NCBI GenBank assembly: GCA_007125585.1
Contig: SLCY01000023.1
Location: 1 to 60,739 of the forward strand
From: Bacteroidales bacterium
GTDB taxonomy: Bacteria; Bacteroidota; Bacteroidia; Bacteroidales; UBA7960
Length of the DNA stretch: 60,739 nucleotides
Reading direction: 5' to 3'
Shown here: one piece after another, positions 8,442 through 28,475 of the stretch
Position numbering within the stretch: position 1 is the stretch's first letter
How the letters are laid out: every line of letters starts with the position of its first letter
Translations under genes and position numbers: made by a program
Notes under the pieces: generated by a model
The model's database searches: none
Seen by the model: only the letters and a program-made list of their open reading frames with translations
What the model was told of the DNA's origin: nothing

Positions 8442-9892
8442 GGGTACCGTTGCTGGGGTTCGCCGGACCATCCGTTTGCAATGCCGCCGGGATCCATTAA
8501 TACACTTTTTACAAGTTTTTCAAAACCGGGTGCCAGACAGTGGTCTGCATCAAAGTTACGGATATATTCAGCCAATGGCCTGTCCTGGTATTCGGGATAC
8601 CGTTCGCTGTCTTTATAATACGACAAAAGTGGGGGCAAACCCATGTGGTTGTTTAACCTGTTCTTCACGGTATGGGCCAGGGCGATGTTCACCTCATCGA
8701 TGGTGCCGACACATTCAAATGGTTTTGCATCACTGAGCCCGCACAGGTCATTGAGCGTTTCTTTCAATGCCGTGTCAGAGAACAGATCCCTGCCAAATAT
8801 ATTCATCAGGGCTCCGGGTGAGAGGAATGGTGACAGGACCACATAGGTAAAGAGGCATTTGGCGCATTTGCCGCACCATGTGTTTTGTTTGCTGCCCACA
8901 TTGCAGCTCCTGAACCTTGAGTGGTATTTTTTCTGACGGGAAAAGAGGGCTGCTATCTGCAATTCGTTCAGGGGCCTGAGAAGGCTGAAATAGCTGTGCC
9001 GGCTGTCAACATGATCAGCCACATAACTCCTGAAGTCCCTCTCGAATTCCAGCGACTTGCTGTACTGGTGGTTTATCCTGGTACCGGGGATGGAAGGTTC
9101 ACTGGCACTCGATTCATTCGAGAGGGCTATGTGCTTGATTGCCGCATTTTTCGCTGCAAAGAAAGAAACGAATGCCAACATGGCAGAAAATGGCGTGTGT
9201 CCGTTAAGAAACCCTTGCTTGTTAAGTTCCAGCAAAAGGGGGTCCATTTTCCGGTTCAGCGTGATGACTTCAGGGGGAGAAAAGCCTGCGGTTTCAAGAA
9301 CCTCACTGGTTGCACCGCGCGGGTTTACCACAAAAGGGACAATCTTGTACCCCGAACATTTCAGCACCTCCAGGCTGACCACAGAGTCTTTGCCACCGCC
9401 AACCGGGACGAGCACGGTGCCGGCATCTCCGGTAACCGGCGAAACATCTTTATCGGGCAACGGTCCACAGGCATCGGGAAATTCAAAATCTACCATTTCC
9501 GGTCCGGGCATGGGAATGCCATTGGTATAAAAAAATTCACCCAGCCCATAACGAAACAACTTTTTCCACCAGGTCTGTTGTTCAACCGACAAGAGATAGG
9601 GCTCTATTCGGATACGCGGAGAACAGAAGGCTTTCCAGTAGCTGAGCATCTCAATCATGCCCAGATGAAACACCAACAAGCGCTCTATACCTGGTTGTTG
9701 AAACAGCAGGTTGCGGGTTTTCCCAAAGTCAAAATACAGACGGGGATTGAAGGCATAATGGTCGCCGGCTTCGAACTCAAACGCTACCTCTGTATTGTTC
9801 TGATTTTGAAGAACATGAAAGCCCTTATAAGAGAAAACAGGATATGCCTTCCTTAACTCCCGGTATCTTTGTTGATGATCCTGGATTACCAT
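8438..9892 (-). CDS. murL: UDP-MurNAc-L-Ala-L-Glu epimerase (MurL family)
   Basis: PP-loop-like VPVGGGKDS, NGHTPFSA, SNESSA, NHQYSKS, WCGKCAKC and KPFECVG. Coupled to a murD gene as in murL-murD2 loci. Confidence 0.8.
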   Translation of the reverse strand: MVIQDHQQRYRELRKAYPVFSYKGFHVLQNQNNTEVAFEFEAGDHYAFNPRLYFDFGKTRNLLFQQPGIERLLVFHLGMIEMLSYWKAFCSPRIRIEPYLLSVEQQTWWKKLFRYGLGEFFYTNGIPMPGPEMVDFEFPDACGPLPDKDVSPVTGDAGTVLVPVGGGKDSVVSLEVLKCSGYKIVPFVVNPRGATSEVLETAGFSPPEVITLNRKMDPLLLELNKQGFLNGHTPFSAMLAFVSFFAAKNAAIKHIALSNESSASEPSIPGTRINHQYSKSLEFERDFRSYVADHVDSRHSYFSLLRPLNELQIAALFSRQKKYHSRFRSCNVGSKQNTWCGKCAKCLFTYVVLSPFLSPGALMNIFGRDLFSDTALKETLNDLCGLSDAKPFECVGTIDEVNIALAHTVKNRLNNHMGLPPLLSYYKDSERYPEYQDRPLAEYIRNFDADHCLAPGFEKLVKSVLMDPGGIANGWSGEPQQRYP

Positions 9893-12305: not shown

Positions 12306-13646
12306 TTATACGTAACCCTGTGCGATCATCGCATCGGCAACCTTAACGAAGCCACCTATGTTGGCCCCTCTCACATAATTGATGAAATCGCCTTCCTTTC
12401 CAAACTCTGAGCAAGTCTTATGGATATTGATCATGATGTTATGGAGGCGCTGGTCGACCTCTTCCCTTGTCCATGACATGCGCAGTGCGTTCTGGCTCAT
12501 CTCGAGGCCTGATGTGGCAACACCGCCGGCATTGGCTGCTTTGCCAGGGCCGTAAAGGATTTTATTGGCAAGGAATACCTCCACTGCTTCCGGTGTGGAA
12601 GGCATGTTGGCACCTTCCGATACGCAAATACAGCCGTTTTTCACCAGTTCTTTGGCTTCCTCTTCGTTCAGCTCATTTTCTGTGGCACAAGGTAGTGCTA
12701 TATCGCATTTTTCCATCCAGGGCCGGGCAACACCTTCAACATATTTGCATCCAAACTCATCGGCATACTCACGGATTCTTCCGCGCTTGATATTTTTCAG
12801 GTTTTTCACATAATGCAACCTTTCTGCATCTATGCCATCCTGGTCGTAAATATAGCCGTTGGAGTCAGAGAGTGTAACCACCTTGCCGCCCAGTTCGATC
12901 ACCTTCTCGGTGGCAAACTGTGCAACATTGCCGGAACCACTGATGGCGACTGTCTTGCCTTTGATCTCCTCGTTGATGGTGGCAAGCATTTCCTGGGCAA
13001 AATATACCGTACCGTAACCGGTGGCCTCCGGGCGGATCAGGCTGCCCCCGTATTCAAGTCCCTTGCCGGTAAATACACCGGTAAACTCATTTCGGATCCG
13101 TTTGTACTGACCGTACATGAACCCCACTTCCCGGCCCCCAACACCGATATCACCGGCGGGGACATCGGTATCCGGACCAATATGCCGGAAAAGCTCCGTC
13201 ATCAGGCTCTGGCAAAACCGCATCACCTCCACATCTGATTTTCCTTTGGGGTCAAAGTCACTTCCTCCTTTACCGCCGCCAAGAGGCAAAGAGGTAAGGC
13301 TGTTCTTAAACACCTGCTCGAAGGCCAGAAATTTCAATACCCCCAGGTCCACCGTTGGGTGAAACCGCATTCCGCCCTTGTAAGGCCCGATGGCACTGTT
13401 CATTTCAATACGGTAACCGCGGTTTATCTGTACCTCCCCCTGGTCATCTATCCAGGGGATTCGGAAGATCACCACCCGCTCAGGCTCTATCATCCGCTCA
13501 AAAACCTTTGCCGCTTTGTATTTGGGATTCTCTTCCAAAAAAGGAATGATGGTTTCAGCCACCTCTTTTACCGCCTGGTGAAATGCCGTTTCTGCCGGGT
13601 TTTTGGCCACTACATAATCCATAATTTTTTTCAGTTGTGCATCCAT
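12306..13646 (-). CDS. gdhA: Glutamate dehydrogenase, NADP(H)-type or dual-cofactor
   Basis: GPYKGG.RFHP, GGGKGG, DVPAGDIGVG, RPEATGYG, GSGNVA, and the SDS motif (TLSDSNG) as in NADP-dependent GdhA. Confidence 0.93.
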   Translation of the reverse strand: MDAQLKKIMDYVVAKNPAETAFHQAVKEVAETIIPFLEENPKYKAAKVFERMIEPERVVIFRIPWIDDQGEVQINRGYRIEMNSAIGPYKGGMRFHPTVDLGVLKFLAFEQVFKNSLTSLPLGGGKGGSDFDPKGKSDVEVMRFCQSLMTELFRHIGPDTDVPAGDIGVGGREVGFMYGQYKRIRNEFTGVFTGKGLEYGGSLIRPEATGYGTVYFAQEMLATINEEIKGKTVAISGSGNVAQFATEKVIELGGKVVTLSDSNGYIYDQDGIDAERLHYVKNLKNIKRGRIREYADEFGCKYVEGVARPWMEKCDIALPCATENELNEEEAKELVKNGCICVSEGANMPSTPEAVEVFLANKILYGPGKAANAGGVATSGLEMSQNALRMSWTREEVDQRLHNIMINIHKTCSEFGKEGDFINYVRGANIGGFVKVADAMIAQGYV

Positions 13647-13937: not shown

Positions 13938-16900
13938 ATGACTAAAGACGCACGTAGCGATTCCCGTTTAACTGAACTCAACCTGCAAAAGGTAGATATT
14001 GAGCAGCCGCTTGCCATCAGCCAGGAGGAGATAAAGAAGCTGTTGGCAGAAAAGAGAGAACGACTTAAGGAGCTGAGTGCCATTCATAAGATCACGGCCA
14101 TCCTCAAGGAAGAGAAGCCGATCCATGAGATGCTTCAAAAGATCGTCTTTATCCTTCCGTCCGCGTGGCAACATCCTGAAGATGCGATTGCCCGAATAAA
14201 ATACGGAGAAAAAACATTTGTCAGCAAGGCAGGATTAATCGAGACCAGGTGGGCACAACGCAAAACATTTGAAACCATCGACGGAACAGAAGGATGTCTG
14301 GAGATATTCTATCAGAAAGAGTTCCCTGAACAGGATGAGGGGCCGTTTTTCATCGAAGAACGCCATCTGCTCAATAATCTCAGCAGTTTGATCACAGGCC
14401 ACCTAAACACCCAGATCGGCAAAGATCTTCTCAAACAGTCTGCGAATCGTGAGGAAGAAACCGTGGAGGTTCAGCATGAGCGTTCCCATGCAGCCATGAG
14501 CCGTCAGCTGCTTCAAAAATTCCTTAACAAACATAATTCCGACCGCGACATATACCACGACCTGATGCAATACAAGGTCCGTGAGATCCTGCTGGTGGCA
14601 AACCTCTACGATGCCTATATCATTGAACAGGAGGGGCGCTTTTTTGAGCAGGTCACCGGCGAATACTATCAGCTGAATCTTTCTTCAGCACCCCGCATCA
14701 CCGGCGTTTCTACCCCTGAGGAAGCCCTTGAGAAGCTGCAGGAAAAGCATTTCGACCTGGTCATTGTTATGATGGGTGTGGAAAAGTCTACCCCCATTCA
14801 GTTGAGCCGTATCATCAAACAGATCTACCACAATATCCCCATCTTCATGCTGCTCAACAACAACTCCGACATTGCCCTGTTCGAAGATGGCACCAAACCG
14901 ATCACCTCCATCGACAAGGTGTTTGTGTGGAACGGCGACTCCAAGGTTTTCCTTGCCATGGTCAAGTATAATGAAGACAGGATGAATGTGGAAAACGACA
15001 TTCGCATCGGGATGGTACGGGTGATCCTTTTGGTGGAAGACTCGGCCAAATATTATTCACGGTACCTGCCCATTCTTTATTCCATCGTCATAGAGCAGAC
15101 ACAACATTTGATCGAGGAGGTCAACACCGACGAGCTGTACAAGCTGCTTAAGATGCGTGTACGACCCAAGGTGCTCCTTGCTTCCAATTATAATGAAGCA
15201 GTCAGTTTGTTTAACAAGTACAGGGATAACCTGCTGTGCCTTATTTCGGATGTCAAATTTGAGAAAGACAGGGTGATAGACCCTGAAGCAGGTTTGAAGC
15301 TGGTGAAATATACCAAGGAGATGGTGCCCAACCTGCCCGCCGTCCTGCAAAGCTCCGACCCGGAAAATGCAAATGAGGCCTATAAACTGCAGTGCACCTT
15401 TATCAACAAAAACTCCGAGACACTGAAACAGGACCTGCAGAGCTTCATCAATTATTACCTGGGTTTTGGTCATTTTATTTATAAGGATGAGGATGGACGG
15501 CGCGACCTTGCCGTAGCACGCTCCATGAAGGAGTTCCAGACACACCTGAGGACCATTCCTGAAAAATCACTGGTTTATCATGCCAAGAAGGATCACTTTT
15601 CTCACTGGCTGATGGCCCGCGGGGAAATACAAATCGCCAAGCGAATCAAACCCCTCAAGGTGGAAGATTTTGAGTCGCCCGGCAGTTTGCGCAATTACCT
15701 GATCAATGTTATTGAGCAGTGCATCCATGATAAACAGAAAGGCAAAGTGATCAATTATGAGGAGTCTGCCATTCTTGACGAGACCAATGTGGTAAGCATG
15801 TCGCCCGGATCACTTGGCGGCAAGGGCCGGGGCTTGTCATTCATCAACATGATCATCAACAGCTTCAACTTCAATGAGCTGGTGCCTGACATTCGCATCG
15901 GCACACCGAAAACTTCCATCATCGGCACCGAGGAATTTGAACGCTTCATCCAAAACAACAAGCTGTACGATGAGATATACAGCGAAACGGATTATGATAA
16001 GATCAAGGCACTTTTCCTTTCGGGTCATTTAACGCCAACACTGCGCAAACGACTGAAGAATTATCTGTCGGTCATAGATAAACCTCTTGCGATAAGGTCT
16101 TCCAGCCTATTTGAGGACTCGCTGATGCAGCCTTTTGCCGGGATCTTTGACACATTTTTATTGCCGAACAACCATCCCGACCTGAATGTGCGGCTTGAAC
16201 AGGTCATGAGCGCCATCAAGCTGGTCTATGCTTCTATATTCTCACCCACTGCACGATCCTATTTTAAAGCGGTCAACTACAAGATCGAAGAAGAGAAGAT
16301 GGCGGTGATTATCCAGGAGGTGGTTGGCAAGGAATACAACGGATGCTTTTATCCCCACATCAGTGGGGTGGCACAGTCATACAACTTTTACCCATACTCC
16401 TATATGAAGCCGGACGAAGGCTTCGCATCCATTGCGGTGGGCCTGGGCAAATACGTGGTTGAAGGCGAGAAGACCTACCGCTTCTCCCCCATCCATCCCC
16501 AACTGGAAATGTATACCCCGAAAGAATTGTTTAAAAACTCACAGGTCCACTTCTACGCTGTTGACCTGGCCAAAAACGATTTGAACCTTCTCGAAGGTGA
16601 AGATGCCGGACTGACCAAGCTGGAGATTGACAAGGCAGAACAACACGGTACCCTGAAACACTGTGCCTCTGTTTATGATTTTAACAGCGAACGGACCATT
16701 CCGGGCATCACCGATCCCGGGCCACGGGTGGTCAACTTTGCCAATATCCTTAAATACAACTATATCCCCCTGGCCAAAACCATAGAGGTGATCCTCGATA
16801 TCATCTCCGAATCAATGGGCACGCCAATAGAGATCGAATTTGCCATCGACCTGAACAAGGACAAGGAAGGCCGTGCCGGCTTTTACCTGTTGCAGATCAA

Positions 16901-17486
16901 GCCACTGATCAAAAATATCATTGAGACCGAGATCAACATCGACAAGATAGACAACGACCGGCTGCTTCTTTATAGTGAAAATGGGATGGGCAATGGGCGA
17001 ATCACCGATCTTTACGATTTGATCTACGTGGACCTTGACAAATTCGACAAACTCAAAACAGAAAAGGTAAAGGATGAGATTGACAAGTTAAACAGCTTGA
17101 TGGTGAAGGAGGACAGAAAGTACATCCTTGTCGGCCCGGGCAGGTGGGGCACCCGCGACCGGTTCATCGGTATTCCGGTCAACTGGTCACAGATATCCAA
17201 TGCTCGAATCATCGTGGAGATGAGCATGGAAGACTTTCCATTGGATGCCTCGCTGGGATCACATTTCTTCCATAATGTAATCTCTATGAATGTGGGCTAT
17301 TTCTCCGTGAAACACGACGACCTGATCGATTATATCAATTGGGAAAAGCTGAATGAGACCAAACTGGTCAACAAGACAAAGTTCCTGAGGCATGTACGTT
17401 TTAACCGGCCCCTGGAAGTGATCATGGACGGGAAGAAGCGCCATGCGTTGATCTATTTCTCCAACGATGGGGAAAACGAAAAATGA
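13938..17486 (+). CDS. Multidomain PPDK_N (PEP-synthase-type ATP-grasp) protein with GAF-like and receiver domains
   Basis: ATP-grasp motifs LGGKGRGL, LAIRSSSLFEDS..PFAG, MAVIIQEV, GLGKYVVEG, IEFA and LLQIKP. Receiver motifs ILLVED, ISD, LQSS and INK. N-terminal ERLKEL...WQHPE...EGPF..EE segment. Confidence 0.85.
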   Translation: MTKDARSDSRLTELNLQKVDIEQPLAISQEEIKKLLAEKRERLKELSAIHKITAILKEEKPIHEMLQKIVFILPSAWQHPEDAIARIKYGEKTFVSKAGLIETRWAQRKTFETIDGTEGCLEIFYQKEFPEQDEGPFFIEERHLLNNLSSLITGHLNTQIGKDLLKQSANREEETVEVQHERSHAAMSRQLLQKFLNKHNSDRDIYHDLMQYKVREILLVANLYDAYIIEQEGRFFEQVTGEYYQLNLSSAPRITGVSTPEEALEKLQEKHFDLVIVMMGVEKSTPIQLSRIIKQIYHNIPIFMLLNNNSDIALFEDGTKPITSIDKVFVWNGDSKVFLAMVKYNEDRMNVENDIRIGMVRVILLVEDSAKYYSRYLPILYSIVIEQTQHLIEEVNTDELYKLLKMRVRPKVLLASNYNEAVSLFNKYRDNLLCLISDVKFEKDRVIDPEAGLKLVKYTKEMVPNLPAVLQSSDPENANEAYKLQCTFINKNSETLKQDLQSFINYYLGFGHFIYKDEDGRRDLAVARSMKEFQTHLRTIPEKSLVYHAKKDHFSHWLMARGEIQIAKRIKPLKVEDFESPGSLRNYLINVIEQCIHDKQKGKVINYEESAILDETNVVSMSPGSLGGKGRGLSFINMIINSFNFNELVPDIRIGTPKTSIIGTEEFERFIQNNKLYDEIYSETDYDKIKALFLSGHLTPTLRKRLKNYLSVIDKPLAIRSSSLFEDSLMQPFAGIFDTFLLPNNHPDLNVRLEQVMSAIKLVYASIFSPTARSYFKAVNYKIEEEKMAVIIQEVVGKEYNGCFYPHISGVAQSYNFYPYSYMKPDEGFASIAVGLGKYVVEGEKTYRFSPIHPQLEMYTPKELFKNSQVHFYAVDLAKNDLNLLEGEDAGLTKLEIDKAEQHGTLKHCASVYDFNSERTIPGITDPGPRVVNFANILKYNYIPLAKTIEVILDIISESMGTPIEIEFAIDLNKDKEGRAGFYLLQIKPLIKNIIETEINIDKIDNDRLLLYSENGMGNGRITDLYDLIYVDLDKFDKLKTEKVKDEIDKLNSLMVKEDRKYILVGPGRWGTRDRFIGIPVNWSQISNARIIVEMSMEDFPLDASLGSHFFHNVISMNVGYFSVKHDDLIDYINWEKLNETKLVNKTKFLRHVRFNRPLEVIMDGKKRHALIYFSNDGENEK

Positions 17487-17583
17487 AAATGGCAGACGAC
17501 TTTCTGCTGCAGGTCCTTGAAAGAGGCATGACGCCAGACTGTCAGATGCAACTGCGGTACAACAAGAAGAAAGTGATACGGGA

Positions 17584-20562
17584 ATGAATACAATCATCAA
17601 ATACAGGTACGACGAAAAGTACGCTACCGACAGCTATGAGTTCAAGGAGATATCCTATCAGGACCTGATGCAGAAGAGGATCATCAATGTGCTTCTGATC
17701 TGCAGCAACTATGATGCTTTCATGCTGGAGGAGGATGGGCGGATCAACGAAAAGATATTTCTTGAATATACCTCCAAGAACCTGCGTTACCCACCACAGT
17801 TTACCCAGGCCAGTTCATCGGAAGAGGCTTTCAGGCTGATGGAGGCCAAACACTTCGACCTGGTGATCACCATGCTCAACGTGGGAGAGATCGATTGTTT
17901 TGAGATGGCCAAGATGGTAAAAGAACGCCACCCCAAAATCCCCATCGTGGTGCTGACCCATTTCAGCAGGGAGGTGTCGATGAAATTGCGCAATGAAGAC
18001 CTGAGTTCCATCGACTACGTTTTCAGCTGGCTCGGCAATGCCGGCCTGTTGCTTGCTATCATAAAACTCCTGGAAGACCGCATGAATGCCCAGCACGACA
18101 TTGAGGAAGTGGGGGTGCAGGCCATCCTGCTGGTCGAAGACTCTGTCCGTTACTACTCCTCCTATCTTCCCACCATCTATAAAGTCATTTTTGATCAGAC
18201 CAATGAGTTGATGACGGAAGGACTCAATGAGCACCGCAAAACCCTGAGGATGCGCGCCCGTCCGAAGATACTGCTTGCAAAAACCTATGATGAGGCCCTT
18301 TCATTATACAACAAATACAAGGACAATCTCCTGGGTATCATATCCGATATCAGTTATGCAAAGGGTGGGAAAAGGGACGACCAGGCGGGCGTAAAACTTG
18401 CCAAGTACATACGAAAAAGGAACCAGCACATTCCCATCCTCCTGCAGTCATCAGAAAAGTGGGATGCCACCATCAACAAAGAAATTGATGTCAGCTTTAT
18501 CGATAAGTATTCCAAAACCCTGCTGATAGAACTAAAACACTACATCAAAGAAAATTATGGGTTTGGAGATTTCGTATTTAAAGACCACAACACAGGAATG
18601 GAGGTGGGCAGGGCAAACAATTTGCATTCCCTTCAGGTAAAGATTGCCAAGGCCGACCCTAAAGTGCTTGAATACCATGTGACAAACAATCATTTTTCAC
18701 ATTGGCTGAAAGCCAGGGCATTGTTTTCCATTGCAAACATCTTTGCACGGAAAAGCCGGGACGACTTCGACCACATAGAGGAGGTGCGAAGCTACCTGAT
18801 CGATACCATTGCCAATTACAGGCGCACCAAAGGGCGTGGCATTATTGCCAGTCATCTTGATGAATATGCGGTATTTACAAGGCTGGGCGATGGCCAGTTG
18901 GGCGGAAAGGCACGCGGGCTGGCATTTATTGACTCGGTGATCAACAGGTACAAGATCATGAACCACTGGGAAAATGTGACGGTGACCATTCCACGGACAG
19001 TGGTATTGTGTACCGACATCTTTGATGAATTCATGGAGGATAACGACCTCTACGATTTTGCCCTGTCGGATGTGAGTGACGAGGCTGTGCTTGAACGCTT
19101 TGTGCACAGTAAAAGCCCTTCGCGTATGCGGTCATTTTTAAAGGAGATCATCGACTTCTTTAAATCCCCGCTTGCCGTAAGGTCTTCCAGTTTGCTTGAA
19201 GATAGCCATTACCAGCCCTTTGCAGGTGTGTATTCCACCTACATGATCCCCAACAACCATCATGAACGCCATGTGCGCATCCAACAGCTCGACCAGGCCA
19301 TCAAAAGTGTATATGCCTCCGTATTTTTCAGGGAGAGTAAGTCGTACATAGAGGCCACGTCGAACGTAATTGACGAAGAGAAAATGGCCGTGGTGATCCA
19401 GGAAGTATCCGGACGTTCCTACGGAAAGATGTTCTATCCCACCATTTCAGGCGTTGCCCGGTCGGTTAATTTTTATCCCATTGGACCTGAAAAATACGGT
19501 GACGGTGTGGCCAACATCGCTTTTGGCCTGGGAAAAACGATTGTTGACGGAGGCATCTCCTTCCGTTTTTCACCCAGGTATCCCGAAAAATCATTGCAGC
19601 TTTCCAACACAGATATAGCACTTCGCGACAGCCAGAAAGAGTTTTACAGCCTGGACATGGACCCGGAAAAGTTTCGGCCGGCAGTGGATGAAACCCTCAA
19701 TCTGCATAAAACCCGCATCCGGCAGCTGAAAGGAGAATCTGCGCTGAAATATGTAGTCTCTACGTTTGACTATGAAGACCAGATCATTCGCGATGGGCTC
19801 TATGAGAATGGCACCCGCATCATCACCTTTGCCAATGTCCTTCGTCACAAATCCTTTCCACTTGCAGAGATATTGCAGGACCTTTTACATATAGGCCGCA
19901 AAGAGATGAATAACCAGGTGGAGATAGAGTTCACGGTAAACCTCGACATGCTCAAAGGTGAAAAACGGCAGTTCCATTTCCTTCAGATCCGTCCCGTGGT
20001 CGAGACACAAGAGAAAAACAGCGTCAAGATAGACACCCGTAATCCCGAAAAAGCCATCATCATCAGCCATAGCGCGCTAGGCAACGGGATCATTGAAGGG
20101 ATTCATGATGTCGTTTATGTTAAGCCCGAATCATTCGATGCTGCCAGGACCAAAGAGATCGCGGTGGTCATCGACAGGATCAACAAACAGTGCAGGGAAA
20201 AAGGCCTCAACTATATTCTTGTCGGCCCCGGAAGATGGGGCTCCAACGACCCCTGGCTGGGAGTGCCGGTGAAATGGGCACAAATATCAGCAGCCAGGCT
20301 GATCGTTGAATCCGGCCTGAAGGGCTTCCAGATCGACCCCAGCCAGGGAACCCACTTTTTTCAAAACCTGACCTCCTTCCGCGTTGGATATTTCACCATC
20401 AACCCCTTCCTGAATGAAGGCCATTATGATGTGGACTTTCTGAATAAACAAAAAGCCGACTACGAAGATGAACTTGTCCGGCACGTCCGCTTTACCCACC
20501 CCGTAACCATCAAAATCGACGGCACCCAAAAAACCGGAATCGTTTTAAAACCAGAAAAATAA
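17584..20562 (+). CDS. Paralogous PPDK_N (ATP-grasp) protein with receiver domains
   Basis: Collinear with the upstream gene minus about 190 N-terminal residues: ILLVED, ISD, LGGKARGL, LAVRSSSLLEDS, GLGKTIVDG, FLQIRP, GPGRWG, GTHFFQN. Confidence 0.85.
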   Translation: MNTIIKYRYDEKYATDSYEFKEISYQDLMQKRIINVLLICSNYDAFMLEEDGRINEKIFLEYTSKNLRYPPQFTQASSSEEAFRLMEAKHFDLVITMLNVGEIDCFEMAKMVKERHPKIPIVVLTHFSREVSMKLRNEDLSSIDYVFSWLGNAGLLLAIIKLLEDRMNAQHDIEEVGVQAILLVEDSVRYYSSYLPTIYKVIFDQTNELMTEGLNEHRKTLRMRARPKILLAKTYDEALSLYNKYKDNLLGIISDISYAKGGKRDDQAGVKLAKYIRKRNQHIPILLQSSEKWDATINKEIDVSFIDKYSKTLLIELKHYIKENYGFGDFVFKDHNTGMEVGRANNLHSLQVKIAKADPKVLEYHVTNNHFSHWLKARALFSIANIFARKSRDDFDHIEEVRSYLIDTIANYRRTKGRGIIASHLDEYAVFTRLGDGQLGGKARGLAFIDSVINRYKIMNHWENVTVTIPRTVVLCTDIFDEFMEDNDLYDFALSDVSDEAVLERFVHSKSPSRMRSFLKEIIDFFKSPLAVRSSSLLEDSHYQPFAGVYSTYMIPNNHHERHVRIQQLDQAIKSVYASVFFRESKSYIEATSNVIDEEKMAVVIQEVSGRSYGKMFYPTISGVARSVNFYPIGPEKYGDGVANIAFGLGKTIVDGGISFRFSPRYPEKSLQLSNTDIALRDSQKEFYSLDMDPEKFRPAVDETLNLHKTRIRQLKGESALKYVVSTFDYEDQIIRDGLYENGTRIITFANVLRHKSFPLAEILQDLLHIGRKEMNNQVEIEFTVNLDMLKGEKRQFHFLQIRPVVETQEKNSVKIDTRNPEKAIIISHSALGNGIIEGIHDVVYVKPESFDAARTKEIAVVIDRINKQCREKGLNYILVGPGRWGSNDPWLGVPVKWAQISAARLIVESGLKGFQIDPSQGTHFFQNLTSFRVGYFTINPFLNEGHYDVDFLNKQKADYEDELVRHVRFTHPVTIKIDGTQKTGIVLKPEK

Positions 20563-20668: not shown

Positions 20669-22006
20669 ATGAATTTAGAAAAGATAATGTCAGACCTGGA
20701 GCGAAAAAATCCGGGCGAAAAGGAGTTCTTACAGGCAGTAAGGGAAGTACTGGAAACCATCATCGATGTGGTTGCGGAAAATCCCAAATACCAGGCTGCG
20801 AACATCATTGAACGCATTACCGAACCCGACAGGGTGATATCGTTCAAGGTGGAATGGGTCGATGACAAAGGGAACGTGAATGTGAACAGGGGATACCGCG
20901 TGCAGTTTAATAACGCGATCGGTCCATACAAGGGCGGCTGCCGCTTTCACCCCAGTGTTACGCTGAGCGGACTGAAGTTTCTGGGATTTGAACAGATCTT
21001 CAAAAACAGCCTGACCACGCTCCCCATGGGCGGTGCCAAAGGGGGAAGCGACTTTGATCCCAAAGGGAAGTCACAGGCCGAGATCATGCGTTTCTGCCAG
21101 GCATTCATGAGCGAACTCTATAAATATATCGGCCCGCAAACCGACATTCCAGCAGGCGACATCGGTGTGGGTGGCCGTGAGATCGGGTATATGTACGGCA
21201 TGTACAAAAAACTTATTGGTGAGCATACCGGGACCTTCACCGGCAAGGGACGCAACTGGGGCGGAAGCCTGATCCGGCCGGAAGCCACCGGCTTCGGCGC
21301 CGTATTCTTTGCTGAAGAAATGCTGAAGACCAAAGGAGAAGCGATAAAAGGAAAAACCATTGCCGTCTCCGGCTTCGGTAATGTCTCATGGGGAGCCATC
21401 ACCAAGGCCACCCAGCTGGGGGCCAAAGTAGTGACCATCAGCGGCCCGGACGGGTACGTATACGATCCTGAAGGCGTGTCCAGCGAAAAGATCGACTACC
21501 TGCTCGAACTGCGCGCCTCCAACCAGGATATCGTAAAACCCTATACCTACGAATTCCCCAATGCCCAGTTCTTCGAAAGCAAGCGCCCATGGGAACAGAA
21601 AGTCGACATCGCCATGCCTTGTGCCATCCAAAACGAACTGGATGTGGAAGACGCCAAAAACCTGGTTAAGAACGGTGTTATCGCCATTTCCGAAGGGGCC
21701 AACATGCCCTGTACACCCGAAGCAGTGGAGATCATCCAGGAAGCCAGGATCCTTTACGGCCCCGGCAAGGCAGCCAATGCAGGCGGCGTGTCAACCAGCG
21801 GACTGGAACAGACACAGAATGCGATGATGCTTAGCTGGCCCGCCGAAGAAGTGGAAGAGAAACTGCACCAGATCATGAAAAACATTCACGAAGCGTGCAA
21901 AAAATTTGGCAAGGAAGAAGACGGCTATATCAACTACGTGAAAGGCGCCAACATTGCCGGGTTCATCAAAGTGGCCGACGCAATGATCGACCAGGGCGTA
22001 ATATAA
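20669..22006 (+). CDS. gdhB: Glutamate dehydrogenase, probably NAD(H)-specific
   Basis: GDH core motifs. Cofactor region GFGNVSWG...TISGPDG resembles the NAD-specific Clostridium symbiosum-type enzyme rather than the SDS type. Confidence 0.88.
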   Translation: MNLEKIMSDLERKNPGEKEFLQAVREVLETIIDVVAENPKYQAANIIERITEPDRVISFKVEWVDDKGNVNVNRGYRVQFNNAIGPYKGGCRFHPSVTLSGLKFLGFEQIFKNSLTTLPMGGAKGGSDFDPKGKSQAEIMRFCQAFMSELYKYIGPQTDIPAGDIGVGGREIGYMYGMYKKLIGEHTGTFTGKGRNWGGSLIRPEATGFGAVFFAEEMLKTKGEAIKGKTIAVSGFGNVSWGAITKATQLGAKVVTISGPDGYVYDPEGVSSEKIDYLLELRASNQDIVKPYTYEFPNAQFFESKRPWEQKVDIAMPCAIQNELDVEDAKNLVKNGVIAISEGANMPCTPEAVEIIQEARILYGPGKAANAGGVSTSGLEQTQNAMMLSWPAEEVEEKLHQIMKNIHEACKKFGKEEDGYINYVKGANIAGFIKVADAMIDQGVI

Positions 22007-22379: not shown

Positions 22380-22901
22380 ATGCGAATAAAACGAATCCAG
22401 CCACCCAAAAAGGATGCCCTTGTTGATGACAAGGTAAACCTATCCCTGCTCGACCCGTTGCTTGAAAAGTACAGGGATAAAAAAGGGAACCTTATTCCGC
22501 TGCTCCAGGGAACCCAGGATATTTTCGGTTACCTTCCAGGAGAGGCGTTTGCCAGAATCCATGAAGCCACCGGGCTCCCCCTGAACGAGATGTATGGTGT
22601 CGCCACGTTTTATGCCCAGTTCCGCCTTGTCCCCGCAGGAAAACACATCGTAAAAATGTGCCATGGCACAGCATGCCATGTCCAGAACGTAACAGCCATT
22701 ACCGATGAAATCCTCGACACACTGCAGATCAAAGACGGTGAAACCACCGGCGATGGGTTGTTTACCGTTGAAACGGTTGCCTGCCTGGGATGCTGTTCGC
22801 TCGCCCCGGTCATGATGATCGGCGAAGAGACCCACGGCAAGCTAACACCCAGGGAAGCCGTCAAGATCATACGGGAAATAAAACGCAGGGAAAACAACTA
22901 A
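22380..22901 (+). CDS. HydC/NuoE-like [2Fe-2S] subunit
   Basis: GVATFYAQF, CHGTACHV and VACLGCCSLAPV. Confidence 0.92.
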   Translation: MRIKRIQPPKKDALVDDKVNLSLLDPLLEKYRDKKGNLIPLLQGTQDIFGYLPGEAFARIHEATGLPLNEMYGVATFYAQFRLVPAGKHIVKMCHGTACHVQNVTAITDEILDTLQIKDGETTGDGLFTVETVACLGCCSLAPVMMIGEETHGKLTPREAVKIIREIKRRENN

Positions 22902-22923
22902 CACGAAAAAAGCATTGCCAACA

Positions 22924-24702
22924 ATGGGAAAAACCAAAGTGATCGTGGGACTCGGAAGCTGCGGCATCGCAGCCGGGGCCACCAAGACCTATAACGAGTT
23001 TGAACGCATACTGAAGGCCGACAAGCTAGACTACGAGTTGAAAAAGACCAGCTGCATCGGCATGTGCTACCGCGAACCCCTGGTGGAGATCATCGACGAC
23101 AGCGGCACCTATATGTACGGCGAAGTGAATGTGGTACGGGTAGATGAGATCATCGACAAGCACATCAAGAAGTTTTCGCCTATCCCCGAATATATTGTGC
23201 AATCGGACAAATACCCATCAAAAGACCAGCAGTTTTTCGACGGCCAGGTAAAGATCAGCCTGCGCAACTGCGGGCACATCGATCCCGAATCGATCGAAGA
23301 GTACGAATCGCAAGACGGGTACCAGGCGATCAGGAAAATCGCAACCCAGAACGTGCCTCCGGAACAGGTGATCCAGGATGTATTGGACTCGGGACTGCGT
23401 GGCCGGGGAGGCGGCGGGTTCCCCACCGGCATGAAATGGAAGTTTGCCCGCAATAATCCGTCCGAAAAGAAATATGTCATATGCAATGCGGATGAGGGCG
23501 ACCCCGGGGCATTCATGGACCGTTCAATCCTCGAAGGCGACCCCCACGGGGTGCTTGAAGGGATGATCATCTGCGGATATGCCATCGGCGCCAGCGAAGG
23601 ATACATCTACTGCAGGGCCGAATACCCCCTTGCCATAAAGCGGCTGAACCTGGCCATCGAACAGGCCAGGAAAAAAGGGTATCTCGGAAAAGGGATCTTC
23701 GGTATCCCGGACTTTGACTTTGACATTATCATCAAAGAGGGGGCAGGGGCATTCGTGTGCGGGGAAGAAACCGCCCTGATCGCCTCCATTGAAGGCTCCA
23801 GGGGCATGCCTCGGCGCCGCCCGCCGTTTCCCGCCGAAGCCGGCCTGTGGAAACATCCGACAAACATCAATAACGTAGAAACCTTCATCAACATTCCGTG
23901 GATCATACGGAACAGTCCGGAACAATACGCCAGCTACGGCACCGAAAAGAGCAAAGGTACCAAGGTGTTTGCACTGACTGGTAAGATCAATCACGGGGGA
24001 CTTGTGGAAGTGCCCATGGGGATCACCATCAAAGACATCATTTACAACCTGGGCGGGGGGATCACCGGCAACAAAAAATTCAAAGCAGTCCAGCTCGGCG
24101 GTCCCTCGGGCGGATGTATCCCCGAACACCTCAGCCATACACAGGTCGACTACGACTCGGTGAACGCCACCGGTGCGATCATGGGCAGCGGCGGCATGGT
24201 GGTGATGGACGAAACCACGTGCGTGGTTGATATCGCCAAATTCTTTCTCGACTTTACCCAAAAGGAGAGCTGTGGCAAATGCACCTTCTGCCGCATAGGT
24301 ACGCTGCGGATGCTTGAAACGCTCACACGTATCACCGAGGGAGAAGGGAAAGAGGGCGACATCGAAATGCTGGAGGAACTGGCTGAAATCATCAAAGACA
24401 GTTCACTGTGCGGCCTTGGCCAAACGGCGCCAAACCCCGTACTGACCACAATCCGGTACTTCCGCGATGAGTACGAGGCACATATCAACGATAAAAAATG
24501 TCCGGCGACAAGCTGCAAAAAGCTCCTCACCTACACGGTGATCGACGAAAACTGTACGGGGTGCATGGCATGTGCAAAAGCTTGTCCTGTAGATGCGATC
24601 GAAGGGGAGAAAAAGCAGGTGCACCATATCCTCCAGGATGCCTGCATCCGTTGCGGGGCATGTTTGAACAGGTGTAAATTTGATGCCATCCATATCGAAT
24701 AA
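22924..24702 (+). CDS. HydB-like FMN/NADH-binding subunit with extra Fe-S domains
   Basis: N-terminal thioredoxin-like [2Fe-2S] (SCG, CIGMC). GLRGRGGGGFPTG, NADEGDPGAFMDR, CGEETAL, ESCGKCTFCR, CGLG. C-terminal 2x[4Fe-4S]. Confidence 0.92.
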   Translation: MGKTKVIVGLGSCGIAAGATKTYNEFERILKADKLDYELKKTSCIGMCYREPLVEIIDDSGTYMYGEVNVVRVDEIIDKHIKKFSPIPEYIVQSDKYPSKDQQFFDGQVKISLRNCGHIDPESIEEYESQDGYQAIRKIATQNVPPEQVIQDVLDSGLRGRGGGGFPTGMKWKFARNNPSEKKYVICNADEGDPGAFMDRSILEGDPHGVLEGMIICGYAIGASEGYIYCRAEYPLAIKRLNLAIEQARKKGYLGKGIFGIPDFDFDIIIKEGAGAFVCGEETALIASIEGSRGMPRRRPPFPAEAGLWKHPTNINNVETFINIPWIIRNSPEQYASYGTEKSKGTKVFALTGKINHGGLVEVPMGITIKDIIYNLGGGITGNKKFKAVQLGGPSGGCIPEHLSHTQVDYDSVNATGAIMGSGGMVVMDETTCVVDIAKFFLDFTQKESCGKCTFCRIGTLRMLETLTRITEGEGKEGDIEMLEELAEIIKDSSLCGLGQTAPNPVLTTIRYFRDEYEAHINDKKCPATSCKKLLTYTVIDENCTGCMACAKACPVDAIEGEKKQVHHILQDACIRCGACLNRCKFDAIHIE

Positions 24703-24770
24703 GGTGCATCCAAAGGCAACGACGCACGCGCAAAACATATATATCACAAACAACCAACCAGTTATACCAA

Positions 24771-27700
24771 ATGAGCGCATTGAATATCATCATAAACAAA
24801 CAGATCGTTAAAGGAGAGAAAGGAGAAACCATCCTGGACCTGGCCCGCCGCCTTGACATAGAGATCCCTACGCTTTGCAACGACGAAAGGCTGGAGCCGT
24901 TTTCTTCGTGCTACCTCTGTGTGGTCGAAGTGGAGGGAATGCGCGGCCTTCAGCCCGCCTGTTCAACAAAGGTCGCCGAAGGGATGCGCATCGAGACCAA
25001 CAACGAACGGGTCGAAAAATCGCGCAAGTTCGCCCTCGAACTTTTGGTAAGCAACCATTACGCCGACTGTACCCCACCCTGCCGCGAAGAATGTCCCGCA
25101 GGCGTAGACGTACAGGGATACATCTCCATGATCAGCAAAGGGAAACACCACGAAGCGGTCGAACTCATCAAACAAACCAACCCGCTCCCGGCTATCTGCG
25201 GCAGGGTGTGTGTGCGTCCCTGCGAACTGGTTTGCCGGAGAACCCTGCTGGAGGATGCGGGTGTTGGGATCGACTACCTGAAACGGTATACCTCCGATAT
25301 CGACCTGTACTCCGACACCAGGTACATGCCCGGTGTGAAACCGCCTACCGGGAAAAAGGTGGCGATCATCGGTGCGGGTCCCGGGGGACTCACCGCGGCG
25401 TACTACCTGGCACTCGAAGGGCACCACACGGAGATCTTCGAGGCAAGCCCCCATGCAGGCGGTATGCTCCGGTACGGCATCCCCCCCTACCGGCTGCCCA
25501 ACGATGTCATCGAAAAAGAGATCGAAGGGATAACCAAACTGGGCGTCCAGATAAACTACAACAAGAAGCTGGGCGGGAACTTCACCTACGAAACGCTGCG
25601 CGACACGTTCCACGCCACCGTCCTTGCCATCGGATCCCAGAAAGGCACCGGCATCGGCTGCGAGAACGACGACGCCGGCAACATCTTCTCCGGGATCGAC
25701 TTCCTGCGAAACATGGAGATGACCGGCCAGAAATATGACTTTGCCGGCAAAAGGGTCGCCGTTATCGGCGGCGGGAATACGGCGATGGACTGCTGCAGGA
25801 CGGCCAAGCGGTGCGGGGCCGAAGAGGTCACCGTCATCTACAGACGCACCGAAAAGGAGATGCCGGCAAACCCCATCGAGATCCACGAATCAAAGATCGA
25901 AGGGATCAACTACATGTTCCTTACCGCCCCGGCAAAGGTGAACAAGGACGAAAAAGGCAACCTCCGGTCGCTGACATGCATACGGATGGAACTGGGCGAA
26001 CCCGATGCCTCCGGCAGACGGCGACCGGTAAAAATTGAAGGATCCGAGTTCGACGTTGAACTTGACTATATCCTGGCTGCCATCGGCCAAAAGACGGTCG
26101 TTGACTTTATCGACGATATCAGCAGCCACGCAGAGACCCCCCTGAAGCTAAACAAGTGGGGCGACATCGACGCCGATCCTAAAACGTTGCAAACCTCCAT
26201 TGAAAGCGTTTTTGCCTGTGGCGACGGGGTCACCGGACCGGCTACCCTCATTGAAGCGATCGCCCAGGGCAAACTGGCAGCGCAGAGCTGTAACCAGTGG
26301 CTGGGCGGCCAGAAGGTGACCCCCCCCATTCCGGAGTTCCTGAGCAAAAAGGATCATTTCGAGAAACAACAGGAAGGGGACTACCAAGGGCTGTTCCCCG
26401 AACAGCCGCGCGAAGAGATGCCCACCCTGGAAGCACAAATGCGCAGCGACTTCGACGAAGTTGAGCTGGGATACACCGACGAAGCCGCCCGCCAGGAAAC
26501 ACATCGATGCCTCGAATGCGGCTGTTCCGAGCTGCATACGTGCGACCTGAAACGGTACGCCAACGATTACCAGGCCGAGCAAAGACGTTTTGGCGGTGAT
26601 TACAAAAAACATGCGGTTGACTTTGACCACCCGTTTATTGAGATAGACAACAACAAATGCATCCTCTGTTCACGCTGTATCCGGATCTGTTCGGAGGTCA
26701 ACGGGGCCAATGCCCTGGGACTGGTCAACAGGGGTTTCGAAACCTATGTGGCACCGAGCATGGACGGACGGCTGCGTGATACCCATTGCGATGCCTGCGG
26801 ACTGTGTATAGACACCTGTCCCACCGGCGCCATCACCGAGAACGTACCGTTCAAAACCATGCCCGTCCGCATGGAGAACGTCCAGACCATCTGTACCTAT
26901 TGTTCTGTGGGATGTGCGATAAAACTGCACCACAAAGGGGGGTTTGTGGCGCGCACCACCGGATATAACGGGTTGGTAAACAAAGACGGAAGCATTTGCC
27001 GCTTTCCCAAGTTCGGCTACCATTATATGAATGACGCATCGCGGGTCACTACCCCGATGCTGAGAGAAAACGGAACGTTCAAGCCGGTTTCCTTTGACAC
27101 GGCATACGATATCCTGCGCGAAAGAATGGAGGCATGCACTCCCGAAGAAAACGGTTTTTATATCGGTGCCCGCCTTACCAACGAAGAGATGTACCTGGTA
27201 CAGAAGCTGGCCAGGGCTGGTGTAAAAACCAACAACGTGAGCAGCTTCCATTACATGGACCGGGGATCGGGATATATGGACAACGCCAAATTCAGCGTCC
27301 CTGTCGAACTCCTTCGCAAAGCCAAAACATTGTATGTGCTCGACAGTGATATCAATACGGAACATGGGGTCGCCAGCTTTTACGCCTTCAGCACTCATGT
27401 CAGGGACCAGATCCCCCTGGAGCTGATCACCACCCGGGATGACAGCAGCATGGCCCACAAGGCCGGCACGGTGACCAGGATCCAGGCGACATATCCCTTC
27501 GTTAAAGCCGCCATCCATTACATACTGCACAACAAACTGGAAAACAGGGTTTACATTGATGACCACTGCGAAGGCTTCGAAGCGTACAGGGAACATGTTC
27601 TTCAGGAAGACTTCGACTCCCTGATCCTTGCCGCCGGATGCACACCGGCACAACTGGTAAGGTTCGCCGGCCAGTTTACCAGGGAAGCACAGGCCGTGAT

Positions 27701-28463
27701 CCTGTGTTCCGAAAAACACATCTCGGCCAACACGTGCCAGGAATTGCATAACCTTTGTTTCATCACAGGCAAATCGGGAAAAAGAGCCTCAGGACTGCTG
27801 GCGCTCAAGGAAAAAAACAATGCACAGGGGTTGTACGACATGGGTGCGTGCGCCGGATTCATTCCCGGGGGATCGCCCATGGCGGATATCTCCAACGTGG
27901 AGCGCCTGCAATCTTACTGGGAATGCACCGGCATACCCGCCGAAGTGAACCAGGACCAATGGGGACTGCTGCAAAACGGCAGCATCAAAAATGCGTTCAT
28001 CTTTGGCGAAGACCCTATTGGCTGTGCCCTGAACAAGGAAGAAGTTGCAGCTGTATTACAAAAGGTTGACTTCCTGGCGGTCCAGGATCTGTTCATGAGC
28101 GAAACAGCGAAAGCCTCTGACCTGATCCTTCCCGCCTCCCTCCCGGTAGAAACAGGCGGAAGCTTTACCAATACCAACAAGTTCATTCAACAGTTCAACG
28201 CAGAGATGCCCTCCCCGGTCGAGGCTACAAGCGTGGAGCAGCTTAAGACACTGCACCGGATCGCAGGACTGCAAACCGCGTATTCGTCGCCGGCCGATGT
28301 GATGCTCGAAGTGGCAGGACTGCTGGAATCGCGCCCTAAAACCAATACCAGGCCGACACTAAGATATACCGAAAAAGATAACCCCACCCGTCGATTTGAC
28401 TACGGGTGCGACACACTGGTCAAAATGTTTGAAGAAAACTGGAAAGAAGCATTTTCCAAATAA
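24771..28463 (+). CDS. Large subunit: [2Fe-2S] + GltD/NfnL-like FAD/NADPH domain + NuoG-like Fe-S and molybdopterin-fold domain (NfnA-like)
   Basis: IPTLC/CYLCVVE/ACST, CGRVC.RPCE, GAGPGG, GGGNTAMD, YRRT, CILCSRCIRIC, CDACGLCIDTCP, TICTYCSVGC. C-terminal molybdopterin-fold motif SDLILPA. Confidence 0.85.
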   Translation: MSALNIIINKQIVKGEKGETILDLARRLDIEIPTLCNDERLEPFSSCYLCVVEVEGMRGLQPACSTKVAEGMRIETNNERVEKSRKFALELLVSNHYADCTPPCREECPAGVDVQGYISMISKGKHHEAVELIKQTNPLPAICGRVCVRPCELVCRRTLLEDAGVGIDYLKRYTSDIDLYSDTRYMPGVKPPTGKKVAIIGAGPGGLTAAYYLALEGHHTEIFEASPHAGGMLRYGIPPYRLPNDVIEKEIEGITKLGVQINYNKKLGGNFTYETLRDTFHATVLAIGSQKGTGIGCENDDAGNIFSGIDFLRNMEMTGQKYDFAGKRVAVIGGGNTAMDCCRTAKRCGAEEVTVIYRRTEKEMPANPIEIHESKIEGINYMFLTAPAKVNKDEKGNLRSLTCIRMELGEPDASGRRRPVKIEGSEFDVELDYILAAIGQKTVVDFIDDISSHAETPLKLNKWGDIDADPKTLQTSIESVFACGDGVTGPATLIEAIAQGKLAAQSCNQWLGGQKVTPPIPEFLSKKDHFEKQQEGDYQGLFPEQPREEMPTLEAQMRSDFDEVELGYTDEAARQETHRCLECGCSELHTCDLKRYANDYQAEQRRFGGDYKKHAVDFDHPFIEIDNNKCILCSRCIRICSEVNGANALGLVNRGFETYVAPSMDGRLRDTHCDACGLCIDTCPTGAITENVPFKTMPVRMENVQTICTYCSVGCAIKLHHKGGFVARTTGYNGLVNKDGSICRFPKFGYHYMNDASRVTTPMLRENGTFKPVSFDTAYDILRERMEACTPEENGFYIGARLTNEEMYLVQKLARAGVKTNNVSSFHYMDRGSGYMDNAKFSVPVELLRKAKTLYVLDSDINTEHGVASFYAFSTHVRDQIPLELITTRDDSSMAHKAGTVTRIQATYPFVKAAIHYILHNKLENRVYIDDHCEGFEAYREHVLQEDFDSLILAAGCTPAQLVRFAGQFTREAQAVILCSEKHISANTCQELHNLCFITGKSGKRASGLLALKEKNNAQGLYDMGACAGFIPGGSPMADISNVERLQSYWECTGIPAEVNQDQWGLLQNGSIKNAFIFGEDPIGCALNKEEVAAVLQKVDFLAVQDLFMSETAKASDLILPASLPVETGGSFTNTNKFIQQFNAEMPSPVEATSVEQLKTLHRIAGLQTAYSSPADVMLEVAGLLESRPKTNTRPTLRYTEKDNPTRRFDYGCDTLVKMFEENWKEAFSK

Positions 28464-28475
28464 AAAAATGATACC

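Follow-up and report, generated by a model that had tools for sequence, protein, structure and literature searches.

Two adjacent genes in the analysed window (60,739 nucleotides of a Bacteroidales bacterium, contig SLCY01000023.1) encode proteins in which an ATP-grasp domain is followed by an end domain of uncertain nature, and the question raised by this locus is whether that end domain could carry phosphate on a histidine, and to what acceptor. The two products, P0001 and P0002, are tandem paralogues sharing 37% identity across 977 aligned residues. The genes, their parts and their neighbours are the following:

12306..13646, - strand: glutamate dehydrogenase (GDH) gene, divergent from the P0001/P0002 pair.
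13938..17486, + strand: P0001, paralogue 1, a real ORF of 1182 aa (N-terminal extension, pseudo-receiver, receiver, linker domain, PPDK_N ATP-grasp, C-terminal swivel-like domain, in that order).
15810..16916, + strand: ATP-grasp (PPDK_N) of P0001, residues 625-993 (PF01326, E 8.7e-41).
16962..17456, + strand: C-terminal swivel-like domain of P0001, about residues 1009-1173, with bounds transferred from P0002 by BLASTP alignment.
17262..17264, + strand: His1109 codon CAT of P0001, candidate phospho-carrier His in S-L-G-S-H-F-F-H-N.
17584..20562, + strand: P0002, paralogue 2, a real ORF of 992 aa (pseudo-receiver, receiver, linker domain, PPDK_N ATP-grasp, C-terminal swivel-like domain, in that order).
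17677..18090, + strand: receiver-like domain 1 of P0002, residues 32-169, acceptor position Met97.
18115..18558, + strand: receiver domain 2 of P0002, residues 178-325, with E185/D186, D255 (codon 18346-18348), S289 and K308.
18895..20049, + strand: ATP-grasp (PPDK_N) of P0002, residues 438-822.
20053..20547, + strand: C-terminal swivel-like domain of P0002, residues 824-988, strands/helices E824-828 through E984-988.
20224..20241, + strand: G-P-G-R-W-G loop of P0002, residues 881-886.
20353..20355, + strand: His924 codon CAC of P0002, candidate phospho-carrier His in S-Q-G-T-H-F-F-Q-N.
20669..22006, + strand: second GDH gene, immediately downstream of the pair.

The N-terminal extension of P0001, of about 200 aa, had no family match. 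Members of the family are labelled 'PEP synthase', 'PEP/pyruvate-binding domain protein' or 'CheY-like' in the databases; for P0001 and P0002 the first of these is a wrong annotation.

Both C-termini read YILVGPGRWG[TS].D...G[IV]PV.W.QIS.AR.IVE...D.S.G[ST]HFF.N...VGYF, and the earlier note, which had claimed this shared motif together with the two histidine codons, was borne out on both points by reading the sequence. The same note had named poor conservation of this His in homologues as an argument against a catalytic role; the His was instead present in all 155 domain matches covering the site, taken from the top 150 of 1752 representatives (E <= 1e-3, each standing for a cluster at 50% identity), and was preceded by S, T, A or C in 151 of the 155 and by M or V in the other four. 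Twenty positions were each conserved in more than 95% of 137 near-full-length domain sequences (P0002 numbering: G833, G835, N867, L879, G881, G883, R884, W885, G886, G893, P895, V896, E909, S920, G922, H924, F925, F926, N928 and Y936). Within the GPGRWG loop R884 was invariant and the remaining positions nearly so; this loop is family-specific, with no counterpart in canonical swivel domains. The conservation of the motif and of its His is far beyond chance.

The proposed match to the canonical swivel motif stood in the order of its blocks and failed in their spacing. The four blocks of P0002 (a hairpin rich in G; ILV; [ST]H with a helix after it; and a last DG..G.[VI] strand) follow the order seen in canonical sequences, in which a strand-like block is succeeded by GG.TSH, the AAIVAR stretch and IPAVV, and the chain ends no more than about 10 residues past the last block, as it does in a C-terminal swivel domain from the comparison set (L120, parent protein unannotated). 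Counted on the sequences, however, the I of ILV lies 46 residues from the His, against 30 in the PPDK of the same genome. The motif itself, S.G[TS]HFF[QH]N, departs from the GG.TSHAAI.AR of PEP synthase and PPDK in having F-F-[QH]-N after the His, no Arg at +6 and the extra GRWG loop, which is one of two loops that are each 8 residues longer in the family.

Sequence-based comparisons with known swivel domains were uniformly non-significant. PF00391 matched none of 32 family end domains at E <= 10 and neither whole protein at E <= 1, and its only match among nine candidates across this genome was the PPDK. The family profile (hmmsearch) gave 13 matches at E <= 10 against PDB sequences, with no dikinase among them, and phmmer against the same sequences offered no route to a swivel family. 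Alignment with hhalign to 27 real swivel domains drawn from this and related genomes, and then to 26 (without L118, L122 and L126, in which the longest frame was on the wrong strand), yielded P = 0.073 and 0.1 with a probability below 1%; in the first, non-significant alignment (P = 0.073) the family His was offset by two residues from the canonical one. All that a language-model look-alike search of the ESM Atlas brought up were unrelated small families; the top one scored 0.90 with 101 shared features, a level that the tool itself places within the range of chance. Such results are what would be expected if an unrelated fold merely resembled the motif by chance, a reading that the predicted structure, described below, makes barely credible.

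The AF2 model of P0002 residues 806-992 was predicted with high confidence (pLDDT 92.7, pTM 0.89) and has a swivelling beta/beta/alpha fold whose nearest known structures are phospho-His domains. In a VIA search of this model against 48,161 chains, phospho-His-type domains made up seven of the top 11 rows, including Enzyme I (2wqd, 5.4; 5woy, 5.3; 5t12, 5.2), which argues against a chance match. Foldseek found nothing in the PDB at E <= 1e-3; MccF/LdcA headed its list (6.8e-3), and PPDK rows stood at 1.2e-2 to 4.8e-2. Of the three computational checks named in the earlier note, two favoured the proposal, one of them being the conservation of the His. The fold check suggested for the last ~170 aa came out in its favour in the model and its VIA neighbours, but not in hhalign or Foldseek. 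In the AF2 models helix 923-931, which follows strand 904-910 and precedes strand 935-940, has His924 at its N-terminal end, and the canonical swivel His is likewise found at a helix start; model confidence is lowest in the loop leading directly into the His (model residues 111-120, mean pLDDT 74). The equivalence of the two histidines is putative, drawn from the secondary-structure order and the alignment ranges.

The domain preceding this tail is a PPDK_N ATP-grasp of the kind found in PEP synthase, PPDK and RPH, with intact nucleotide-binding motifs: GGK, RSSS..ED, Q606, E780/E782 and Q801 were invariant in 43 of 43 full-length homologues, and R803 was R in 42 of the 43. In the full-length AF2 model of P0002 (pLDDT 86.8, pTM 0.78) the ATP-grasp ends near residue 804 and the C-terminal domain begins at 824, leaving a linker of about 20 residues. 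The C-terminal domain is placed on the ATP-grasp as in nucleotide-facing PPDK, PEP synthase and RPH, an arrangement that may come from AF2 memory of solved dikinases. ATP-grasp and C-terminal domain superpose as one body on several structures, and the two-domain superpositions on RPH, PEP synthase and PPDK gained ~70-100 aligned residues over the ATP-grasp alone, which also speaks against a chance match. With PPDK in PEP-facing or intermediate states, as assigned in the available part of PMC5371819, only the ATP-grasp aligned (2r82 and 5jvj_A, 228-230 residues) or the alignment was reached only at an rmsd of 11-13.5 (1vbg, 1vbh and 5jvn).

Complex prediction of the ATP-grasp with ATP and Mg against the C-terminal domain gave an ipSAE of 0.58 (runs 0.45, 0.63 and 0.58; best control 0.02), which the tool grades as weak support and which may likewise reflect memory of solved dikinases. 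The runs shared at least 90% of their contacts, with a partner pLDDT of at least 80. Of 157 solved complexes 116 attained the tool's mark, as did 2 of 215 mismatched pairs; values of 0.60 or less belonged to only 18 of those 157 complexes, plus both mismatches that passed.

We consider it probable that the last 165-170 residues are a very divergent phospho-His swivel domain of the PEP synthase/PPDK/Enzyme I/RPH type, with the invariant His as candidate phosphate carrier. The main competing explanation, which we regard as unlikely, is that the swivelling fold, perhaps of dikinase descent, no longer carries phosphate and serves as a regulatory, oligomerisation or substrate-binding lid; the ATP-grasp would then act directly as a kinase or ligase, and the invariant His, R884 and GRWG loop would form another binding or catalytic pocket. 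Against such a lid stand the absolute conservation of the His at what would be the topologically equivalent place, the docking of the domain in the nucleotide-facing position and nowhere else in the model, and the retention of a domain order (ATP-grasp, linker, C-terminal domain) like that of RPH. In addition, the characterised enzymes with an ATP-grasp of the PPDK_N type operate through a His carrier, as described in the accessible portions of PMC4844700 and PMC12167813. PMC3281104, which names PPDK_N only as a kinase-like family, has no bearing on the matter.

On the carrier reading, both proteins are probably enzymes under signal control that autophosphorylate on His. By analogy with RPH, PEP synthase and VadK, the C-terminal domain would dock onto the ATP-grasp site, where His924 (His1109 in P0001) would attack ATP at its beta-phosphate to form a phospho-His enzyme together with AMP and Pi; the domain would then swing off and pass the phosphate to an acceptor. 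This acceptor would lie outside the polypeptide's own fold set. Pfam and NCBIfam searches with the whole proteins matched no PEP/pyruvate barrel or RIF-binding-type domain. The same result upholds the architecture of a dikinase core lacking only a small-molecule acceptor domain, as the earlier note had described it, but the missing partner need not be a small molecule: it could equally be a protein or the enzyme's own receiver Asp.

The swivel domain of RPH is canonical and of the PF00391 type, unlike the end domain of P0001 and P0002. RPH (PDB 5hv1, 5hv2, 5hv3 and 5fbs, RPH-Lm) carries its catalytic His825 on that C-terminal domain, according to the available text of PMC4844700, but has a rifampin-binding domain of ~440 residues between ATP-grasp and swivel where a joint of ~20 residues is found here, and has no receivers; the alignment took in 383 of its 846 residues, with no counterpart of the RIF-binding domain in P0002. 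PEP synthase and PPDK (PDB 2ols, 1dik and 1kbl) share with P0002 the ATP-binding motifs and, in the predicted model, the relative position of ATP-grasp and His domain of the nucleotide-facing state I, but they possess a PEP/pyruvate TIM-barrel domain and lack the N-terminal receivers. In the two-component small-molecule dikinase HpeHI, the ATP-grasp and the swivel and substrate domains are on separate proteins, with a substrate-binding domain and no receivers, all unlike P0001 and P0002.

A parallel in reduced architecture is VadK (Rv1127c), compared here by its description. [quoted passage not shown] VadK is described as a truncated PPDK relative without receivers, whereas P0001 and P0002 have receivers, and their genes lie beside GDH genes.

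The receivers differ from each other. Receiver 2 has the acidic pair, acceptor Asp, Ser/Thr and Lys of a response regulator, retained across 43 homologues (E185 in 41, D186 in 38, D255 in 39, S289 in 38 and K308 in 41). Receiver 1 has M, T, F, S or L at the acceptor position (Met97 in P0002) and Asp in 0 of 43 homologues, and is therefore a pseudo-receiver. The true receiver (Asp255) most likely gates the ATP-grasp/His activity downstream of it. Response regulators with enzymatic outputs are the relevant comparison, the output here being the ATP-grasp/His module; in our literature search no paper described this module in the output role of a response regulator, and none gave an account of a receiver-fused ATP-grasp/His family.

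A special case of the carrier reading, differing from it in the acceptor alone, is that the phosphate goes to a receiver Asp, either in the same protein or in its paralogue, in a self-contained His-to-Asp relay built from dikinase parts in place of a histidine kinase. It would fit the complete acceptor set of receiver 2, the lack of an acceptor domain, the conservation of the tandem pair across the genus (two copies in most of 12 genus relatives) and the compact assembly suggested by the whole-chain pTM. We hold it to be very doubtful, given that gating by an outside histidine kinase would account for a conserved receiver just as well and that the GDH linkage suggests an external target. The broader proposal of a histidine-kinase-independent phosphorelay, in which the pair would charge itself from ATP and deliver phosphate to its own or its paralogue's receiver Asp or directly to GDH, appears distinctly unlikely.

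The family is large and mostly from Bacteroidota: at least 7998 clusters at 90% identity, and 1752 representatives at 50% identity, match the end-domain profile, and members were present in 20 of the 21 relatives' genomes searched. A GDH gene lay within 7 kb at 27 of 79 related loci, and this recurrent adjacency points to GDH or its metabolic node as the acceptor. Bacteroides GDH is reportedly subject to reversible inactivation, according to old work; our literature search found no report on such inactivation or on gdhA/gdhB inactivation. BT1971 and BT1972 were considered as the genes that lie between gdhA and gdhB in B. thetaiotaomicron, and were rejected; BT1971 is given as a catalase in the available part of PMC12596196.

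What is new here is the fold assignment of the end domain. If it is true, an 'ATP-grasp plus unknown tail' becomes an enzyme expected to autophosphorylate on one named His, yielding AMP and Pi, for which the neighbouring glutamate dehydrogenases and the receiver Asp within the protein would be the first acceptors to consider, and it would follow that a swivel domain can diverge past the reach of current profile libraries. The VadK-type reuse of dikinase cores as regulatory kinases would then extend to gut and environmental Bacteroidota and, should the phosphorelay proposal also be true, the pair would represent a new kind of signalling kinase governing nitrogen assimilation throughout the Bacteroidota.

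Two tandem genes on the plus strand encode P0001 and P0002, paralogues with 37% identity across 977 residues, and this pair is bracketed by two paralogous genes for glutamate dehydrogenase (GDH). The main features are as follows.

Features of the gene pair and its flanking genes (positions in the window)
12306-13646, minus strand: GDH paralogue, on one side of the pair
13938-17486, plus strand: P0001 gene, 1182 aa, in tandem with the P0002 gene
P0001 residues 625-993: PPDK_N ATP-grasp domain (Pfam, E 8.7e-41)
17584-20562, plus strand: P0002 gene, 992 aa, in tandem with the P0001 gene
18559-18849, P0002 residues 326-422: hairpin plus helical small domain, between receiver 2 and the ATP-grasp
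P0002 residues 438-822: PPDK_N ATP-grasp domain (Pfam, E 6e-39)
20669-22006, plus strand: GDH paralogue, on the other side of the pair

Pfam also matched the receiver domain in these proteins, while the last 170 residues of both had no Pfam match, PF00391 (the mobile phospho-His swivel domain of PEP-utilising enzymes) being absent even at E <= 1. In NCBIfam the ATP-grasp part alone produced matches, all partial and below threshold, to the PEP synthase, PigC, RedH and rifampin phosphotransferase (RPH) models, and a phmmer search of the PDB sequences reached RPH over residues 495-659 only. The ATP-grasp motifs GGK, RSSS..ED, Q606, E780/E782 and Q801 were invariant in 43/43 full-length homologues, and R803 of P0002 was an arginine in 42 of them. 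In P0002 the ATP-grasp ends at about residue 804 and the tail starts at 824, with only a lower-confidence linker between them; neither Pfam, the full-length model nor structural alignment showed anything that corresponds to the PEP/pyruvate barrel or the RPH-type rifampin-binding domain. The small domain at residues 326-422 has an invariant Trp374 and a conserved NHFS.WL.AR motif, its equivalent in P0001 is a borderline DUF5752 match (23.0 bits, cut-off 23), and its role could be regulatory or in acceptor binding. P0001 also carries an N-terminal extension of about 200 residues (residues 1-200, window 13938-14540), which P0002 lacks and which had no Pfam match at E <= 1. Elsewhere in the window, a 484-aa open reading frame on the minus strand (8438-9892), adjoining a Mur-ligase-like gene, matched no Pfam family at E <= 1e-3.

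The C-terminal motif quoted in the earlier note was present in both tails, and the candidate phospho-carrier histidines were read where it had placed them, His1109 of P0001 as CAT at 17262-17264 and His924 of P0002 as CAC at 20353-20355. With the 187-residue P0002 tail as query, 1752 representatives (one per 50%-identity cluster) were recovered at E <= 1e-3, and 390 at E <= 1e-30. Poor conservation would have spoken against the histidine; among the best 150 of the 1752 representatives it was kept in all 155 hits spanning the site, the preceding residue being S, T, A or C in 151 and M or V in four. These hits were selected on overall similarity without use of the motif, and 79 loci from named genomes were left out of the count because the search patterns for them contained it. 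In 137 near-full-length tails, conservation above 95% extended to G833, G835, N867, L879, G881, G883, R884, W885, G886, G893, P895, V896, E909, S920, G922, H924, F925, F926, N928 and Y936. The tail is a real and strongly conserved domain. A profile built from 32 tails (alignment A1) matched at least 7998 longer proteins; among the matches listed (120 of them), PF01326 (PPDK_N) was found in all, PF00072 (receiver) in most and PF00391 in none, under source names such as "PEP/pyruvate-binding domain-containing protein", "phosphoenolpyruvate synthase" and "CheY-like chemotaxis protein". The end domain is described by no Pfam or NCBIfam model, nor by any paper found in the literature searched.

Sequence comparison did not identify the tail as a swivel domain, and the canonical swivel motif is missing from its sequence. 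None of 32 family tails matched PF00391 at E <= 10, and the 13 matches of the family profile to PDB sequences at E <= 10 included no dikinase. In the whole genome the only PF00391 match was a 919-aa PPDK on a different contig. Alignments of real swivel domains were drawn from the source and related genomes, comprising PPDK, a 1370-aa PPDK-like protein, PEP synthase, Enzyme I-like proteins and the C-terminal swivel domain of an unannotated parent protein; against these the tails gave, with hhalign, P = 0.073 and P = 0.1 (probability <1%). In the low-confidence alignments the two ILV blocks fall together, the strand preceding the histidine lies on the "giVT" strand, [ST]H on TSH and the closing IDG..G.V on DG..G.V, although in one of them the histidine was two residues off register. 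The order of blocks proposed from inspection was recovered, at that low confidence, but the proposed spacing was not, since 46 residues separate ILV from the histidine in the family versus 30 in the source genome's PPDK, the extra length being spread over two loops at about eight residues apiece, of which one is the invariant GRWG loop. Separately, relatives' genomes G001-G004, G006, G011, G012 and G015 encode, at loci L020-L027, a protein distinct from PPDK, about 1370-1400 aa long, whose PF00391 domain is canonical (GG[AT]TSHAAVTA); the source genome, which is 96.5% complete, gave no second PF00391 match of this kind.

Structure prediction, by contrast with sequence comparison, argues for a swivel domain. 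The AF2 model of P0002 residues 806-992 had pLDDT 92.7 and pTM 0.89, with a weaker loop before the histidine (74). A Foldseek search with this model, among the checks suggested in the earlier note, returned weak rows only; PPDK was among the best of them, together with MccF/LdcA and chaperonin apical domains (top E 6.8e-3). All three groups are generally classed as swivelling beta/beta/alpha folds. The full-length P0002 model (pLDDT 86.8, pTM 0.78) was aligned against Foldseek's best 999 PDB chains. According to PMC5371819, PPDK entries 1DIK, 2DIK, 1GGO, 1JDE and 1KBL have the central His domain turned towards the nucleotide-binding domain; entries in PEP-facing or intermediate states, as assigned in that paper, behaved differently from these in the alignment. 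With 2R82 and 5JVJ/A the alignment was restricted to the ATP-grasp (228-230 residues), and with 1VBG, 1VBH and 5JVN it was obtained only at rmsd 11-13.5. The model thus places the tail at the position that a dikinase His domain occupies while it takes up phosphate from ATP. Complex prediction of the ATP-grasp with ATP and Mg against the tail scored 0.58 (best control 0.02), rated by the tool as "weak support", on a scale whose mark is passed by 116/157 solved complexes and 2/215 mismatches, scores of up to 0.60 above it coming from only 18 of those complexes and from both mismatches. Contacts agreed between runs by at least 90%, and partner pLDDT was at least 80. Both AF2 and the complex predictor may be drawing on memory of solved dikinases. 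Taken together, the tail is most likely a divergent dikinase-type swivel domain, and its histidine is rather likely to be a phospho-carrier.

By analogy with RPH (PMC4844700) and VadK, the tail would dock onto the ATP-grasp domain and His924 or His1109 would take the beta-phosphate of ATP, with release of AMP and Pi. VadK, as described in PMC13400623, derives from PPDK and consists of ATP-binding and His domains; it autophosphorylates on His422 and has methylcitrate-cycle enzymes as interaction partners. The charged tail would then pass its phosphate to an outside acceptor, a step that would be gated by receiver 2 (P0002 residues 178-325), which has the full acceptor set (E185, D186, D255, S289 and K308), every position being kept in 38-41 of the 43 homologues; receiver 1 has Met in the acceptor position, and Asp occurs there in 0/43.

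The family was present in 20 of 21 related genomes, mostly as the same pair (about 995 and 1180-1200 residues), with exactly two copies in the source genome. Three homologous proteins, P0010 (1639 aa), P0014 (1523 aa) and P0036 (1654 aa), carry the end domain twice per polypeptide, with GRWG loops near residue 472-479 and again near 1360-1384, and look like two-unit fusions whose first unit is without receiver domains. Among the 79 loci from named genomes, mainly Bacteroidota (Bacteroides, Lutibacter, Gillisia and many MAGs) and many of them ending at contig ends, the tandem pair was found in 18, and 27 had a GDH gene no further than 7 kb from a family member. Homologues occur in B. intestinalis and B. 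muris, among others. Downstream in the window, a redox run on the plus strand (22380-28931) encodes a NuoE-like 2Fe-2S protein, a NuoF-like FMN/4Fe-4S protein, a 1230-aa fusion (2Fe-2S domain, GltD-like pyridine-nucleotide oxidoreductase and formate-dehydrogenase-like molybdopterin oxidoreductase) and a rubrerythrin; this run may represent a glutamate-synthase-like or formate-linked NAD(P)H/ferredoxin module of the same metabolic node. Because of the GDH linkage, GDH or its node would be the first candidate acceptor of the phosphate, and Asp255 of the same protein the boldest.
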